In this document: one piece after another, positions 2,812 to 7,352 of the stretch
How the letters are laid out: each line of letters starts with the position of its first letter
How positions within the stretch are numbered: position 1 is the first letter of the stretch
Source of the DNA: a virus
Taxonomy: Duplodnaviria; Caudoviricetes
Reading direction: 5' to 3' (one strand)
DNA length: 64,000 nt
IMG/VR virus record: IMGVR_UViG_3300043446_001791
Location: 2,137-66,136 of that record
The notes under the pieces: generated by a model
Seen by the model: only the letters and a program-made list of their open reading frames with translations
Told to the model about the DNA's origin: nothing
Database searches by the model: none
Translations under genes and position numbers: made by a program

Positions 2812-3249
2812 TTATATCAGACCTACGTAGTCGCTGCAAACTCCAGCAATAAAATCTGGTATATTGTTTTCTGGCCTATTAAGATGTACTAAAATACTTT
2901 TGTTTGTTACTGGCATGCCAGGATACGTCCAAATATAATGATTTGTTGTTATTGTATATTTGTCATTTTCATGCCAAAATCCTTTATAATATTTTGGTTT
3001 ATTGACTACATAATTCAATGCATCTAGATTTTTACAATGCAGCCATATTTTTTTTATATATGAGTCTAAAAAAAATTGATCAATTTTATATTGAGGATAG
3101 TCATGGCCCAAATATAATAAATTATCTACCACCCAAAAATCTATCTCAACATCGTAACCAGAATTAATTGCTTGAATGATGTATTCAGGACTATTTTCTA
3201 ATCCTTTATTTGGGCCGTATAGGTTTCCTCTGTGTGATATTTTAATCAT
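2812..3249 (-). CDS. Glycerophosphodiester phosphodiesterase/PLC-like small TIM-barrel protein
   Basis: ISHRGN...ENS...GYDVEIDFW...LGHD motifs. Confidence 0.7.
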   Translation of the reverse strand: MIKISHRGNLYGPNKGLENSPEYIIQAINSGYDVEIDFWVVDNLLYLGHDYPQYKIDQFFLDSYIKKIWLHCKNLDALNYVVNKPKYYKGFWHENDKYTITTNHYIWTYPGMPVTNKSILVHLNRPENNIPDFIAGVCSDYVGLI

Positions 3250-4447
3250 TTACAAGGCCCCATTTTTCAATTGCCTTAATGTATTCTGATTTATAATCTC
3301 TATCTAGTGCCTGTCTCATGGCTCTGGCACCCCCTAAAGTGCCTTCAGGATGGCTGTGGATGGCTCCACCAACGTTAGCCATGTAATCTACACCAAAGCG
3401 ACGTGCAATGGCTTCTACAAGCCCTGGATGCATACCACAACTTAATGCAGGCACAACATTATTATCATTTAATAATCTTATAGACCTTTCAAGTTCCTGC
3501 TCATCATCACTTAGATACCCGCCCCACATACCAGTATGTATTGTATCTACTCCCATTAGGGCAGCAAGTTTACATATAACGTACCAATCTATCTTAAAAT
3601 TATGCTGTGAGTTGGTTAATATTTTATCTCCGCTTTTCTGAAAATGCATAAATAATGGAAGGTCTAATTTACGTATAGAGTTATATGCTCCGAACCCACT
3701 CCAAAAGTTTACATGGATTCCATTTCCACCATTTTCATAAACTAACTTTGCTCTGTCTAAAATAGCATGAGGATCAGAATTAATGCAATGTGCAAAAACT
3801 ACATTTCTTCCAGAATCCGAAATTATATTTGCAATATGTTCTACACGCTCTTCCAGTCTACAAAAAGAAGGATTAGATAAAATCTCATCTTCTTTTATAA
3901 AATCAACGCCACCATCCACTAATTCTTTAACTATATAGCCTAATTGCTTTACAGATATACCAGTCTTTGGTTTTACAATTCCGCCAAGCAGTGGCTTATT
4001 GTATTGGTTGGTAAACTCTCTAATTCCAGACATACCATATTTTGGTTTTAAGAAACTCTTCTTTACAGATTCAGGGAATTCTATATCAACAACACGACAT
4101 ACCTTAAACACATCAATATCTAGTTGTCCACCCATTATCTGACATAATAAATGTGATACACCATCATTATCCCAATCTGAATTTATTTTTGGAAATCCAA
4201 TTTTTACAAATCCATTTAGTTTTGATTTTAAATTTTCTTCTTCATCGTATATAACACAAGATGACATTTCAAATATGTCTTCTGTTTCCCAGTTGTTTCT
4301 CTGTTTAGGATTTCCTACACTTTGACCTATAGCAAGATCCCATGCTGCATCATTAAGTCTTCCATGAACAGAGTTGACCTCAATATAATAGGTTACAACA
4401 ACGCATCTATCTTTTTCTAGGTCATCTAACTCTCTATAAAACTTCAT
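3242..4447 (-). CDS. RuBisCO-like protein (form IV, RLP)
   Basis: PKYGMSGIRE, PLLGGIVKPKTG, GGVDFIKEDE, GVDTIHTG, PALSCGMHPG and GGAIHSHPEG..GARAMRQA match RuBisCO large-subunit motifs; likely start MKFYREL at 4447. Confidence 0.9.
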   Translation of the reverse strand: MKFYRELDDLEKDRCVVVTYYIEVNSVHGRLNDAAWDLAIGQSVGNPKQRNNWETEDIFEMSSCVIYDEEENLKSKLNGFVKIGFPKINSDWDNDGVSHLLCQIMGGQLDIDVFKVCRVVDIEFPESVKKSFLKPKYGMSGIREFTNQYNKPLLGGIVKPKTGISVKQLGYIVKELVDGGVDFIKEDEILSNPSFCRLEERVEHIANIISDSGRNVVFAHCINSDPHAILDRAKLVYENGGNGIHVNFWSGFGAYNSIRKLDLPLFMHFQKSGDKILTNSQHNFKIDWYVICKLAALMGVDTIHTGMWGGYLSDDEQELERSIRLLNDNNVVPALSCGMHPGLVEAIARRFGVDYMANVGGAIHSHPEGTLGGARAMRQALDRDYKSEYIKAIEKWGLVND

Positions 4448-4757
4448 ATTTATCTCCTGGCATCGATGGAGTCTTAACAACTAAAACAGTACAGTCTTCT
4501 AAAAATATAGGATCAGCAATCTCCCCTGGTGTAAAAACAAATACATCTCCAGAGTTAAGTTCTTTATCCTGTATTATCATTTTGCCATTTACTAAAACAT
4601 TATACTCAGTGCCAATCTTGTGATAATGTTTTGGCCAAACCTCTCCAGCCTTATGCTGAAGTAAACCAACCTCAAATTTATCTGTTTTTAATAAAGATGG
4701 ATCAAAGTTACCAATTATCCAGCCTCTAGTAAAATCTTCTATTCTTCTGATTTCCAT
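4434..4757 (-). CDS. Cupin-domain protein
   Basis: RGWIIGNF, HYHKIGTEYN...GDVFVF metal-binding cupin motifs. Confidence 0.8.
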   Translation of the reverse strand: MEIRRIEDFTRGWIIGNFDPSLLKTDKFEVGLLQHKAGEVWPKHYHKIGTEYNVLVNGKMIIQDKELNSGDVFVFTPGEIADPIFLEDCTVLVVKTPSMPGDKYEVL

Positions 4758-5467: not shown

Positions 5468-6429
5468 AATAGGCCTAACATTTTTTCTAGATCGTATTCT
5501 ATTTTACCATATTCTCTAGAAATATTAGGAATGGATATATATTTTTTATTAGCCCAAAGAGTTGCTATTAAGAAAAAATGATAATGAAATTCTGCTCTTT
5601 GTCTAACTATTTGAATGGTGCTCAACTCTATAACTGTGGTTTTATCTCTCATAAATAATAAATTAGTTAAGCCAGATCCAGACAGTCCAGCAACGACCTG
5701 TACCTGATCAAAAAATCTTATTTGATCTTCAACAGTTTTAAATATGTCAGTATCAACTATCTCAAATCCATGCTTTTTAAATAAATTTTCTACACTAATT
5801 TCGTCATCTATTCTTAAATCATCCTGATAAGGTAATTTTTCTATTTCTTCTTTTGTCATTTGATGTAGTTGTGTTACAGATAAATTTTGTTTTGATCCTC
5901 TAGATATATATACTTTTTTATTATTGGGCAAAGATTTATTTCTATATTTACTTATAAGATCTTCTAAAATATTTATGTATTCTCCACACATTTCTATATT
6001 TTCATAATAATAAAAATTTGAAAAAATAGGTGGATATTTTGAATGTATTTGTGTTACAGAAAACTTAATATTATAATTTCTTAATACTTGAACAACAAAA
6101 CTTCCAGTTGAGTGGAAGGCAGAAAGTTCTTTGCTTGGATGTAATAGTATAACCTCTATGTCAGGATCTTTTTTATACTCCCATAATATTGGTGCTAGAG
6201 TGTTTAATAGACTATGAAAAAAATTTGTTTCAAATCTAACTACTATTTTTTTAAATTTTGTTTCTTCAAAAAAATTATCAGCATATTGTATTTTTTCTAA
6301 ACGAAAATCTTTATTATTCCAATCTTCTTTTGAAATCTCTGTTATTATAGGCTTACCTGCATTAAAGTCATCCTCTATAGTATATATTCCTGGATAATGT
6401 ACAGTATCTACTGGACTTTGCCTTATCAT
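5464..6429 (-). CDS. Glycosyltransferase family 61 (DUF563)-like protein
   Basis: KVYISR...RIDDE...DQIRFF...GLSGSGLTNLLFM...VIEL. Confidence 0.75.
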   Translation of the reverse strand: MIRQSPVDTVHYPGIYTIEDDFNAGKPIITEISKEDWNNKDFRLEKIQYADNFFEETKFKKIVVRFETNFFHSLLNTLAPILWEYKKDPDIEVILLHPSKELSAFHSTGSFVVQVLRNYNIKFSVTQIHSKYPPIFSNFYYYENIEMCGEYINILEDLISKYRNKSLPNNKKVYISRGSKQNLSVTQLHQMTKEEIEKLPYQDDLRIDDEISVENLFKKHGFEIVDTDIFKTVEDQIRFFDQVQVVAGLSGSGLTNLLFMRDKTTVIELSTIQIVRQRAEFHYHFFLIATLWANKKYISIPNISREYGKIEYDLEKMLGLL

Positions 6430-7352
6430 AAATAATTTAAAAATCCTTTATTATTAAAATACTCTATTATTATATCAGATTTTCTTTCATGGGGTATTGC
6501 AATATATGTATGTTTTTTTGCCCAAGAGAATGCTACATAGAATGGGTGTACCTGCTGATTGCCACCAATTAGAACTGGTGTCTGCAACTCTACAACCGTC
6601 TGGCCTGGTTGCATAAACATTAGATTTGCCATCCCAGATCCAGAAGGGCAGATCATAGTCTTTACATTATTAAAAAATATAGCCTGTTCTTCAAAAGTTT
6701 TAAAATTTTCTGGATATACAATTTCAAACCCACGACCTTTAAAATAGTTTATTAAAACATCTTCGTCATCAATTCTTAAATCACTTTTTATTCTAAGTGT
6801 GTCCTCATCTCTACCATTTGAAATACTGACAACAGACTTAGGTGTAACTTTTGATCTTGCTAAATATACTATTTTTTCTGGAGTATTGTTTCTGTCTATA
6901 AAAGAACTGCAATAGTCATATACTTCTGAAAATACATATGAAGAAAATGGAATTACCTTCATATAATATGCATCGTTTACATTAATCTCTTCTTCTTTTA
7001 ATTTTACTATTTCATATTTTACTCCTTTGTTATTTAACATTTCTAAAATAAATTTACCATGAGTTATCTCTAAATCGCCTTCATGAAAATCTAATCCAAA
7101 CATCAAAATAAAATGTGCATCTTTATTTAAATTAAAGTAATAAAGTATGTATTGAACCATATTACAAAAAGCATGCAAAAAGTTTTTTTGCCACATAACC
7201 AAATGAACTTCTTGCTTGTCTATAAATCTTCCAAGAGCATCTTTCTCTTCTACCTTTGTTAAAACAGGCCAAACAGTTCCTTCTTTTGGGATAGTAACAT
7301 TATATCTGCCACGTAAAACATTAGGATTGCCGTAGTCACCATAAACAAACAT
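6426..7352 (-). CDS. Glycosyltransferase family 61 (DUF563)-like protein, paralog
   Basis: IVYLAR...RIDDE...EQAIFF...PSGSGMANLMFMQPGQTVVEL. Confidence 0.75.
   Translation of the reverse strand: MFVYGDYGNPNVLRGRYNVTIPKEGTVWPVLTKVEEKDALGRFIDKQEVHLVMWQKNFLHAFCNMVQYILYYFNLNKDAHFILMFGLDFHEGDLEITHGKFILEMLNNKGVKYEIVKLKEEEINVNDAYYMKVIPFSSYVFSEVYDYCSSFIDRNNTPEKIVYLARSKVTPKSVVSISNGRDEDTLRIKSDLRIDDEDVLINYFKGRGFEIVYPENFKTFEEQAIFFNNVKTMICPSGSGMANLMFMQPGQTVVELQTPVLIGGNQQVHPFYVAFSWAKKHTYIAIPHERKSDIIIEYFNNKGFLNYL

Follow-up and report, generated by a model that had tools for sequence, protein, structure and literature searches.

RuBisCO-like proteins (RLPs) on phage contigs were published earlier by Jaffe, Castelle, Dupont and Banfield in 2019, with their function left 'unclear' (PMC6389311). 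As that paper describes them, its 'Form IV-like' RLPs are borne by phages, were drawn in part from IMG/VR, group with Beckwithbacteria, retain only some RuBisCO residues and stand apart from other RLPs (PMC6389311). The protein analysed here shows similar traits, with a Beckwithbacteria sequence and IMG/VR contigs in its clade, and this clade is probably the same group. The words nucleotidyl, glycosyl, cupin or neighbor do not occur in the main text of Jaffe et al. 2019, and some of its sequences were linked to Myoviridae, whereas the RLP considered here is hosted by a long-tailed WhiB phage (PMC6389311). In the MTA-isoprenoid shunt of Rhodospirillum rubrum, as outlined in PMC4958253, a DeepYkr RLP (an MTRu-1P isomerase) and a cupin, the MTXu-5P sulfurylase, are encoded together and act successively on a pentulose phosphate; the present locus likewise encodes an RLP next to a small cupin. 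Methionine salvage (PMC6302742, PMC3698126), in which the RLP enolase MtnW plus MtnX are replaced in most organisms by the bifunctional MtnC, gives a precedent for an RLP/HAD exchange. Its neighbouring steps are carried out by the cupin MtnD and by MtnB, which has the class II aldolase fold.

The source of the locus is a 66,136-bp IMG/VR virus record with a CheckV completeness of 61%, and the window denotes the whole stretch of 64,000 nucleotides of it which was analysed. Genes for a tape measure, a minor tail protein, DnaB and DNA polymerase, together with a weak terminase match, place the window in the genome of a tailed phage. All six overlapping, co-oriented genes which the original prediction had put downstream of whiB are present (Table 1), encoding on the minus strand two GT61-family glycosyltransferases, a nucleotidyltransferase (NTase), a cupin, the RLP and a 145-aa GDPD-like protein (p145). 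The whiB gene ends 5 nt upstream of the first GT61 gene, and the consecutive genes of the block overlap by 4, 4, 19, 14 and 8 nt in transcription order. They are read as an operon because they overlap, which is the sole basis of that reading; promoter-like and terminator-like sites were not more frequent than in shuffled sequence. The entire block was found again in five other viral loci (L001-L004 and L006) with 52-96% protein identity, which amount to about three distinct relatives since the figures of L003 and L004 and those of L002 and L006 are identical. The genes of the block are real. An assembly chimera, or host DNA within a viral bin, might be suspected from the nearest cellular RLPs (62-69% identity), which are labelled SAR11, Crocinitomicaceae or archaeal MAG while WhiB suggests an actinobacterial host. 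A chimera of host and phage is nevertheless ruled out for practical purposes and retains next to no probability, as several independent viral contigs have the block flanked by the same phage genes, GC (0.30-0.34, even over 1-20 kb) and strand are uniform, and genes overlap at each junction of the block.

Table 1. Position and assignment of the RLP block and its flanking genes in the window
Feature	Position	Strand	Basis of assignment
WhiB-like regulator	7358..7642	-	Pfam Whib 46.3 bits; PHROG WhiB families
GT61-family glycosyltransferase a, 308 aa	6426..7352	-	PF04577 63.1 bits
GT61-family glycosyltransferase b, 321 aa	5464..6429	-	PF04577 60.1 bits
Sugar-phosphate nucleotidyltransferase (NTase), 242 aa	4739..5467	-	PF00483 32.6 bits, cut-off 21.2; phrog_3980 at 2.9e-58
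Small cupin, 107 aa	4434..4757	-	Cupin_7 23.9 bits, under cut-off 27; cupin motif 1
RLP, 401 aa from ATG 4447	3242..4447	-	PF00016 (RuBisCO_large) 144.5 bits
p145, 145-aa miniature GDPD-like phosphodiesterase-fold protein	2812..3249	-	Profile match to solved GDPDs
Possible operon extension	1873..2804	-	58-aa ORF 2628-2804, then kinase-fusion gene 1873-2631
P-loop kinase with cytidylyltransferase-like domain	1873-2631	-	APS_kinase 59 bits, weak CTP_transf_like; phrog_10255 'kinase' 4.8e-62

The longest reading frame of the RLP (3242-4480, 412 aa) starts with TTG at 4480, which is an unlikely start; the ATG is more likely because a 100%-identical protein of 401 aa and most relatives align to it end to end. 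The RLP has 2,755 relatives at E<=0.001. In the tree it belongs to a separate clade of 54 members with an SH-aLRT support of 100, which includes a Beckwithbacteria MAG (L023) and IMG/VR contigs; no RLP was found in the GenBank phages searched. In spinach RuBisCO numbering, K175, K177, K201, D203, E204, H327, S379, G381 and G403 are retained in all 56 clade members and G404 in 55 of them. The Mg site of RuBisCO (carbamylated K201, D203/E204, plus K175) is represented by the KPK and K-E-D-E motifs in 56/56 members. The residues for carboxylation and the transition state, E60, N123, H294 and K334, are changed in every member to G, G, Q and Y. T65 is replaced by N in all 56, R295 by K in 54/56 and H298 by D in 48/56. 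The Mg/carbamate triad is thus kept, as are both active-site lysines (K175 and K177) and the C1-phosphate site, the box binding the phosphate beside the carbonyl; all residues required for CO2 addition are gone, and the distal-phosphate site is remodelled. The initial reading as an RLP is supported: the protein is not a carboxylase, and it also lies outside the MtnW and OiaX equivalogs.

Three named functions were considered for the RLP and rejected: form III RuBisCO (195.1 bits, NCBIfam cut-off 497), the DK-MTP-1-P enolase MtnW/YkrW (157.8 bits against 409 for NF007095 and 135.4 against 513.6 for a second model, TIGR03332) and the OiaX 3-oxo-isoapionate-4-phosphate decarboxylase (147.2 bits against 700, and a separate clade in the tree). 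Membership of a methionine-salvage clade had been named at the outset as a possible outcome; the MtnW equivalog scores speak against it, in an analysis whose tree had no labelled MtnW or DeepYkr reference. Nucleotide salvage in the archaeal form III manner, in which NMP is converted via ribose-1,5-bisphosphate to RuBP and the pentose carbon enters glycolysis, would suit the form III enzymes among the best-scoring named models and the solved relatives of the RLP (8dht at 2.6e-41), as well as the occurrence of the clade in DPANN and CPR genomes, described in PMC6389311 as users of the pathway. Such a role is very improbable in view of the four carboxylation residues replaced throughout the clade, a form III score of 195 bits where 497 is the cut-off, and the lack of AMP phosphorylase and ribose-1,5-bisphosphate isomerase among the annotated neighbour families.

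The NTase surpasses the Pfam gathering threshold of PF00483 and has as its best solved relative 4evw, an 'NDP-sugar pyrophosphorylase' (2.9e-14); its matches to the NCBIfam models RmlA-long, GlmU, MurU and HddC were all far under the cut-offs, so that no equivalog was reached. The cupin carries motif 1 in the form G-x5-H-x-H-x4-E-x6-G, with H44 and E51 invariant in the alignments and the second His position variable. Its structure model (pLDDT 96.9) gave 205 Foldseek matches at E<=0.001, those listed being all cupins and headed by two mini phosphomannose isomerases from Thermococcus, 7zvm and 7zvy (E 5e-6, TM 0.68-0.70). This confirms the double-stranded beta-helix fold of the superfamily, which the protein combines with the metal motif. 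No match to PF01050 was obtained in Pfam. The protein is a small metal-site cupin, isomerase-like by fold; this fold match is generic, with dioxygenases, KdgF and DMSP lyase nearly equal in score.

For p145 no Pfam match was found at E<=0.01. A profile built from 21 relatives matches the solved GDPDs 3i10 (2.5e-5) and 7e0v (5.2e-5), which bears out the label 'phosphodiesterase-like' given to it originally. Invariant in the 21 sequences are H6 R7 G8 N9, E35, D37, H49 D50, H71 and K73, and the profile aligns H6 R7, E35, D37 and H49 D50 to the N-terminal motif (HR...E.D...HD) of the solved enzymes. The structure model has a pLDDT of 94.5, and its best Foldseek matches are mostly GDPDs, weak at E 0.02-0.07, with a TM of 0.39-0.57 normalised to the query and 0.21-0.35 normalised to the target. 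A full GDPD (PF03009, some 240 residues in a (beta/alpha)8 barrel) was rejected for this protein of 145 residues without a Pfam match.

Both GT61 proteins exceed the PF04577 gathering cut-off of 27 bits over profile positions 1-137 of 137. Protein b is a distant paralogue of a, the two cross-matching in tblastn with 25-33% identity. Protein a is 58-86% identical in L001-L004 and L006 and had no match in GenBank phages. In a sample of 80 viral loci seeded on p145, GT61 accompanies the cassette in 13 (by BLAST) and WhiB occurs in 14; GT61 accompanies the other genes in this phage lineage and also occurs in p145-GT61 fusions, outside the universal core, and WhiB is context and may open the transcription unit. 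The kinase-fusion extension lies 3' of p145 in L001, L003 and L004 and is absent in L002 and L006, and is therefore regarded as accessory.

Linkage of the RLP to the NTase, cupin and GDPD-like genes was seen in viruses, bacteria and archaea. NTase, cupin and RLP are retained together in 6/6 distant viral loci, and in 42 of 47 cellular loci the NTase adjoins the RLP, four of the five exceptions being contigs of less than 4.1 kb. Cupin (14/47) and p145 (21/47) accompany the cellular RLPs in several gene orders. Natural fusions join RLP, NTase and cupin (P0123, P0124), p145 and RLP (P0139), p145, NTase and cupin (P0176, P0239), NTase and p145 (P0238), NTase and cupin (L009-L012), and NTase and a Pfam GDPD domain (L033); among the 120 long p145 proteins listed, nine also have a GT61 domain and two a ribulose-phosphate 3-epimerase domain. 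The co-occurrence of the RLP with NTase, cupin and phosphodiesterase partners which the original prediction called for is thus seen in conserved neighbourhoods as well as in fusions. The cellular loci with an RLP are glycan loci, in which GT2 (15 loci), NAD epimerase/dehydratase (14 loci), methyltransferase, GT1, WavE, GT11 and DegT, and LicD in Legionella, are further neighbours.

The RLP belongs to the cassette without being its centre: it is present in 13 of the 80 viral loci seeded on p145 and absent from 67. Sister phage contigs (L073, L077, L079, L081) have the cassette without RLP and with p145 directly after the cupin. L073 and L081 show the complete order WhiB-GT61-NTase(-HAD)-cupin-p145, and the maps of L077 and L079 start at GT61 and at NTase, respectively, WhiB and GT61 being located there by tblastn. 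The locus interior was therefore swapped as a unit. As the cassette functions without it, the role of the RLP could be peripheral. The general core, widespread in viruses and cells, is the NTase with the mini-GDPD, usually plus a HAD domain or a cupin. In the 72 p145-seeded viral loci with an NTase, an unbiased sample, both RLP and HAD domain occurred in 2, RLP alone in 11, HAD alone in 55 and neither in 4 (Fisher 3e-8, a statistic which ignores shared ancestry; a tblastn version agrees). The two are almost mutually exclusive as NTase partners. The window NTase contains no HAD domain, so that in this phage the HAD position is vacant and the RLP present. The exclusivity could reflect two lineages with different products instead of alternative routes to one step.

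A salvage function, in which RLP and cupin dispose of 5-methylthio- or 5-deoxy-ribulose-1-phosphate arising from infection as in the MTA-isoprenoid shunt or methionine salvage and the linkage to NTase and glycosyltransferases is secondary, has to be weighed at this point. MtnC is a HAD enzyme. According to PMC6302742, this bifunctional protein replaces MtnW and the phosphatase MtnX in most organisms, echoing the RLP/HAD exclusivity; the DeepYkr RLP followed by the cupin enzyme is, as reported in PMC4958253, an experimentally demonstrated pair which is neighbouring in several bacteria, and a class II aldolase (MtnB superfamily) occurs in cyanophage versions of the cluster. Salvage is nonetheless improbable, as the RLP is far under the MtnW model cut-offs, is fused to the NTase and set in glycan loci, and no further mtn gene was seen in the cassette. 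No cupin profile match at E<=1 and none of the listed Foldseek matches was named sulfurylase or acireductone dioxygenase, and no sequence link of the window cupin to that of the R. rubrum shunt was detected by either route.

On balance the six genes probably form a glycan-donor cassette with the RLP as an optional enolising enzyme for the route to an activated sugar donor. The RLP would enolise a mono-phosphorylated keto-sugar and epimerise C3 or move the carbonyl, as in known RLPs. The cupin, similar to phosphomannose isomerase, would interconvert ketose and aldose forms, and the NTase would make an NDP- or CDP-linked donor. The two GT61 enzymes would transfer the donor sugar, most likely to an envelope glycan or a protein of the phage or host, and p145 would handle a phosphodiester at or next to activation or transfer. 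If true, this predicts a sugar-building role for the RuBisCO fold, the pentulose-derived or branched product of the original prediction being hypothetical. The cassette has no assigned step moving the phosphate to the anomeric carbon, so that the NTase may act on something other than an aldose-1-phosphate. The same core without mutase or anomeric kinase would fit a phosphate-linked donor unit in place of a sugar, an unlikely variant but one with several points in its favour, in which a keto-sugar or polyol phosphate from the RLP is activated by the NTase as a CDP-alcohol-type donor (LicC/TarI logic) and transferred together with its phosphate, and p145 makes or trims the phosphodiester. LicD, of a phosphotransferase family using CDP-activated donors, is the gene immediately upstream of the RLP-NTase pair in the three Legionella loci and is two genes away in a Tatlockia locus, all four without cupin and p145; the core includes a phosphodiesterase fold, which is also found fused to transferases, and the NTase has a sub-threshold NTP_transf_3 match. 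Characterised GT61 members, the transferase type found in the window, are known to use NDP-sugars as glycosyl donors, which argues against this variant, and so do the best named matches of the NTase, which are sugar-1-phosphate enzymes (RmlA, GlmU, MurU, HddC), all below the cut-offs.

The glycan-donor cassette may be set beside several known systems. In the R. rubrum shunt the next intermediate is later cytidylylated. The shunt is a salvage route, however, and as presented in PMC4958253 lacks a fused or adjacent NTase, a GDPD-like protein and a glycosyltransferase. Methionine salvage yields a keto acid, whereas the cassette seems to deliver a nucleotide-linked donor and the MtnW models are not reached. 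The NTase-cupin fusions resemble in domain layout the bifunctional phosphomannose isomerase/GDP-mannose pyrophosphorylase of the AlgA/ManC type, which has a cupin isomerase domain after its NTase domain; in sequence the two are distant, and that system is not known to include an RLP or a GDPD-like protein. Relatives of p145 with 35-45% identity (17 phage records) occur in the LPS-like clusters of cultured cyanomyophages (Bellamy, S-SM2, S-CAM9). The NTases of these phages often have a second domain, as in Bellamy gene 209 with its tandem NTase, and the HAD-NTase layout was confirmed in L126 and L015. A DUF7796-like neighbour is found in Bellamy and S-SM2, and a cupin in two phages. These clusters differ from the present one in lacking a GT61 of this type and the RLP; instead of the latter, Bellamy and S-SM2 have a class II aldolase together with SIS isomerases. 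The OiaX-type RLPs of D-apiose catabolism belong to the same superfamily and act on a phosphorylated keto compound by enolate chemistry without carboxylation; four plasmid references of this type group apart from the window clade (SH-aLRT 99-100) and have four-carbon acid-sugar kinases as neighbours.

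The six open reading frames of the cassette lie exactly where they had been predicted, from 7352 down to 2812 on the minus strand, and encode, in the direction of transcription, two GT61 proteins (GT61a and GT61b), a sugar nucleotidyltransferase (NTase), a cupin, a RuBisCO-like protein (RLP), and a protein of 145 amino acids (p145). Successive genes overlap by 4, 4, 19, 14, and 8 nucleotides, and the WhiB gene upstream ends 5 nucleotides before the first of them. Pfam confirmed both GT61 proteins, the NTP_transferase, the RuBisCO large-chain protein, and WhiB. Promoter- or terminator-like sites at the locus did not exceed the level of shuffled sequences in a scan. 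The observation of the cassette is confirmed, and the interpretation first given to it, in which the RLP makes an unusual sugar phosphate which is then activated with a nucleotide and transferred to virion proteins, the host surface, or DNA, is partly supported. All long open reading frames of the window are on the minus strand, and the PHROG matches, including a tape measure protein of 2,649 amino acids and a minor tail protein besides a DnaB-like helicase, a DNA polymerase, and weakly a terminase, indicate a long-tailed phage. The source record has 66,136 bp and is 61% complete according to CheckV. A tRNA scan of the window found no tRNA, and the GC content is even (0.30–0.34) over its first 20 kb.

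The most probable start codon of the RLP is the ATG at position 4447, yielding 401 amino acids. It scores 195 bits against the form III equivalog (cut-off 497), 158 and 135 bits against the equivalogs of the methionine salvage RLP MtnW (cut-offs 409 and 514), and 147 bits against that of the apiose catabolism RLP OiaX (cut-off 700), and is about 28–31% identical to solved form III enzymes, MtnW, and other RLPs alike. A protein search found 2,755 relatives. In a quick maximum-likelihood tree (LG+G4, SH-aLRT support only), calculated without references for form III, MtnW, and the DeepYkr clade of the Rhodospirillum rubrum shunt, 54 collected RLPs formed one clade (SH-aLRT 100, stem length 0.78) apart from four OiaX-type RLPs and forms I and II. 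Omitted from this tree were the sequences of the relatives' loci L004 and L006 (duplicates), L005, L058, and L059 (less than 340 amino acids), and L049 (reading frame masked by a spurious one). The members come from phages, SAR11, Legionella, CPR bacteria, and DPANN archaea; a sequence from a Beckwithbacteria MAG falls inside the clade, and viral sequences occur in at least three places of the tree.

Fifty-six members of the clade were aligned with one form I, one form II, and one OiaX reference from annotated plasmids, in spinach numbering. All 56 keep K175, K177, K201, D203, E204, H327, S379, G381, and G403, and 55 of them also G404, which leaves the metal/carbamate base and the carbonyl-adjacent phosphate site intact. 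The changes E60 to G, T65 to N, N123 to G, H294 to Q, K334 to Y, and G380 to C are found in all 56, R295 to K in 54, and H298 to D in 48, so that in this alignment the residues for CO2 addition have been lost and the site for the distal phosphate altered. This residue pattern fits a putative enolising enzyme for a mono-phosphorylated keto compound.

Relatives of the RLP were found at 12 viral loci. Five of these, which amount to about three distinct relatives, contain the whole WhiB-GT61-GT61-NTase-cupin-RLP-p145 block with RLPs 86–96% identical, and one ends inside the RLP. The other six are distant (RLP 53–56% identical); all of them keep NTase, cupin, and RLP, four keep p145, in four NTase and cupin are one protein, and GT61 is absent from all six. 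At 6412–9104 of contig L012, labelled as belonging to a giant-virus MAG, the RLP lies beside an NTase-cupin fusion of 451 amino acids and p145. In GenBank phages no match to the RLP or to GT61a was obtained by tblastn.

The proposed coupling of RLP and NTase also recurs outside viruses, the two genes being adjacent in 42 of 47 bacterial and archaeal loci; four of the five cellular loci with no NTase beside the RLP are contigs shorter than 4.1 kb. By tblastn the cupin was found in 14 and p145 in 21 of these 47 loci, in several gene orders. The genomes include SAR11, CPR, DPANN, Verrucomicrobiota, Planctomycetota, Legionella, and Azospirillum. Frequent neighbours are GT2 (15 loci), an NAD-dependent epimerase/dehydratase (14 loci), and a DUF7796-like protein (12 loci), and further ones are methyltransferases, GT1, WavE, GT11, DegT, and B12-radical SAM enzymes; in three Legionella loci the gene immediately upstream of the RLP is LicD, which is also found nearby in a Tatlockia locus. 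The cellular RLP loci are glycan loci. For one neighbour family, c5 (258 amino acids, 12 loci), no solved relative was found, and DUF7796 was its sole match, in four of nine members. Among cellular RLPs the closest, at 69% and 63% identity, come from L013, binned as a Methanobacteriota archaeon, and L014, binned as a Crocinitomicaceae bacterium; as these contigs of 4.6 and 3.3 kb each hold the four-gene cassette alone, viral or mobile DNA may have ended up in the bins.

The two smallest proteins of the cassette were characterised by their folds. The cupin scores below the Pfam cut-off; its fold is confirmed by a confident model (pLDDT 96.9) with 205 Foldseek matches at E<=0.001, the closest being mini phosphomannose isomerases of Thermococcus. 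No Pfam match was found for p145, which had been called phosphodiesterase-like, and a profile of 21 relatives bore this out by matching solved glycerophosphodiester phosphodiesterases (GDPDs) across the catalytic HR...E.D...HD motifs. The model of p145 (pLDDT 94.5) resembles GDPD barrels loosely. Judged from its profile, p145 is a putative miniature GDPD-like protein. A protein of 399 amino acids with a p145 domain, P0234, is labelled as from the chytrid fungus Spizellomyces, so the domain may extend to eukaryotes or to viruses of eukaryotes.

Fusions among the relatives join the same partners in single polypeptides. RLP, NTase, and cupin are combined in P0123 and P0124 (813 and 817 amino acids), p145 and RLP in P0139, p145, NTase, and cupin in P0176 and P0239, and NTase and p145 in P0238, and in a Micrarchaeota MAG (L033, 10995–12512) an NTase is joined to a Pfam GDPD domain near an RLP. 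Among the 120 long p145 proteins listed, 9 have a GT61 domain, 6 DUF7796, 13 a methyltransferase, 3 HAD, 2 a ribulose-phosphate 3-epimerase, and 2 GT-D; the p145-GT61 fusions tie GT61 to the cassette beyond the phage lineage of the window. These fusions argue strongly for a single pathway in which RLP, NTase, cupin, and p145 would act, and likewise for a place of p145 close to the transfer step. Two other proteins encoded near RLPs are a HAD_2-NTase protein of Pelagibacter (L015, 1758–3128) and a protein of 639 amino acids in a Francisellaceae MAG (L053, 15509–17428), the only Pfam domain of which is an NTase, with HAD-like and kinase-like parts read by eye from its sequence.

On the best-supported reading, a keto-sugar phosphate is the starting compound from which the cassette would make a nucleotide-activated donor. 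This compound would be enolised and then rearranged or epimerised by the RLP, the cupin would perform a ketose-aldose step, the NTase would activate the product, and the GT61 pair would transfer the activated unit. The fused NTase and cupin mirror the layout of PMI-GMP enzymes. The protein p145, in which the catalytic residues of GDPDs are retained and which occurs fused with transferases, with NTases, with HAD domains, and with the RLP, may handle a phosphodiester near activation or transfer. There is real support for a variant in which the phosphate would travel with the transferred unit: LicD in the Legionella loci, a GDPD fold as a member of the cassette, and a cassette core containing no mutase.

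Concerning the acceptor of the donor made by the cassette, a tailoring cluster lies upstream. Its two 2OG-Fe(II) oxygenases match PF13640 (59.6 and 33.3 bits), a family that includes prolyl 4-hydroxylases, and one protein of the cluster has a very weak match, below cut-off, to a Skp1-type (Gnt1-like) GlcNAc transferase (E 0.0024). Together with the GT61 pair this cluster suggests protein hydroxylation followed by glycosylation, and a protein is the favoured candidate acceptor. No Wzx/Wzy-type gene was noticed among the annotated open reading frames of the window. Virion glycosylation has been reported for mycobacteriophages. The two kinase-cytidylyltransferase-like paralogues of the window are 25–29% identical to each other by tblastn, and the first copy is present in the related loci L001, L003, and L004 and missing from L002 and L006.

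Features of the window around the cassette
Feature	Position	Strand	Remark
P-loop kinase + cytidylyltransferase-like fusion, copy 1	1873-2631	minus	directly 3' of cassette
P-loop kinase + cytidylyltransferase-like fusion, copy 2	9420-10115	minus	paralogue of copy 1
TP_methylase-fold protein, NodU/CmcH-like carbamoyltransferase, two 2OG-Fe(II) oxygenases	10892-18026	minus	tailoring cluster upstream of cassette
Flavin 'tryptophan halogenase'-like gene	37026-38477	minus	phrog_2928
Flavin 'tryptophan halogenase'-like gene	2-547, runs past window start	minus	phrog_2928

A search seeded with p145 gave at least 589 viral stretches, and the best 80 were examined. Among these best 80 of at least 589 loci an NTase is present in 73, the cupin in 37, WhiB in 14, and the RLP and a window-like GT61 in 13 each, counts from which NTase and p145 emerge as the core and the RLP as an optional part. 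Four sister contigs (L073, L077, L079, and L081) share the flanks of the window phage, with WhiB 58–77% and a small open reading frame 3' of p145 50–88% identical, and in all four the cupin is directly followed by p145 with no RLP between. The series WhiB-GT61-NTase-cupin-p145 is complete in L073 and L081, where the NTase bears a C-terminal HAD domain; in L077 and L079 WhiB and GT61 were found by tblastn. As the interior genes are 24–58% identical to those of the window (p145 up to 71%) and the flanks more so, the locus seems to have had its interior swapped for another allele. In L081 a flavin 'tryptophan halogenase'-like gene (PF04820, 343 bits) adjoins the cassette without RLP.

Another finding was a near-complete mutual exclusion between the RLP and HAD domains located close to the NTase. 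Among the 72 p145-seeded loci with an NTase, taken from the best 80 of at least 589, both are present in 2, the RLP alone in 11, HAD alone in 55, and neither in 4 (Fisher 3e-8, a value that ignores relatedness); a BLAST version agrees, and for all 125 loci the respective numbers are 3, 62, 55, and 5. Three types of cassette can be distinguished: HAD-NTase with p145, NTase-HAD with cupin and p145, and NTase with cupin, RLP, and p145, to which the window belongs.

It is possible, if rather doubtful, that the RLP clade is a keto-sugar-phosphate epimerase/isomerase opening an undescribed route to a nucleotide-activated sugar, and that cassettes with RLP and cassettes with HAD can replace one another as alleles of a single phage locus. 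If this were true, the chemistry of a glycan borne by proteins of the virion or the infected cell would depend on the allele, the locus would be a phage counterpart of O-antigen serotype switching, and the RuBisCO superfamily would have its first biosynthetic role in glycan building. To our knowledge, all characterised RLPs work in salvage or catabolism. The new task for the RuBisCO fold is a well-supported and testable prediction; its parts are known families, and the phage RLP clade is in print. According to their main text, Jaffe et al. 2019 found on contigs of phages, part of them from IMG/VR, about 80 'Form IV-like' RLPs, which cluster with Beckwithbacteria and the function of which they left open (PMC6389311). 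The words nucleotidyl, glycosyl, cupin, and neighbor are missing from this main text; Supplementary Fig. S1 of the paper has gene maps of phage and a Beckwithbacteria fragment and may already display the cassette neighbours. No account of the cassette was found among the other papers listed by the literature searches. What is gained is that neighbourhood and fusions link a large uncharacterised RLP clade to the activation and transfer of sugars, and that the question of phage RLP function becomes a concrete assay requiring four proteins, all of them small and soluble. Natural controls exist in the sister cassettes lacking the RLP and in the exclusivity of RLP and HAD, which also suggest that this is a locus where phages would diversify a glycan.

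Cultured cyanomyophages offer a comparison. There p145 occurs in 17 records and the cupin in two phages, the genes lying in LPS-like clusters whose NTases in some cases bear a second domain; none of these cyanomyophages has an RLP, and Bellamy and S-SM2 encode a class II aldolase and SIS isomerases. The class II aldolase was considered as a general stand-in for the RLP and was rejected, as it gave 0 matches in the best 80 of at least 589 p145 viral loci, though it is present in these two phages. The apparent exchange of RLP and HAD has a parallel in methionine salvage, where MtnC is a HAD enzyme. That an RLP can trade places with another enzyme has been published: according to PMC6302742, MtnW and MtnX of Bacillus correspond to a bifunctional MtnC elsewhere.
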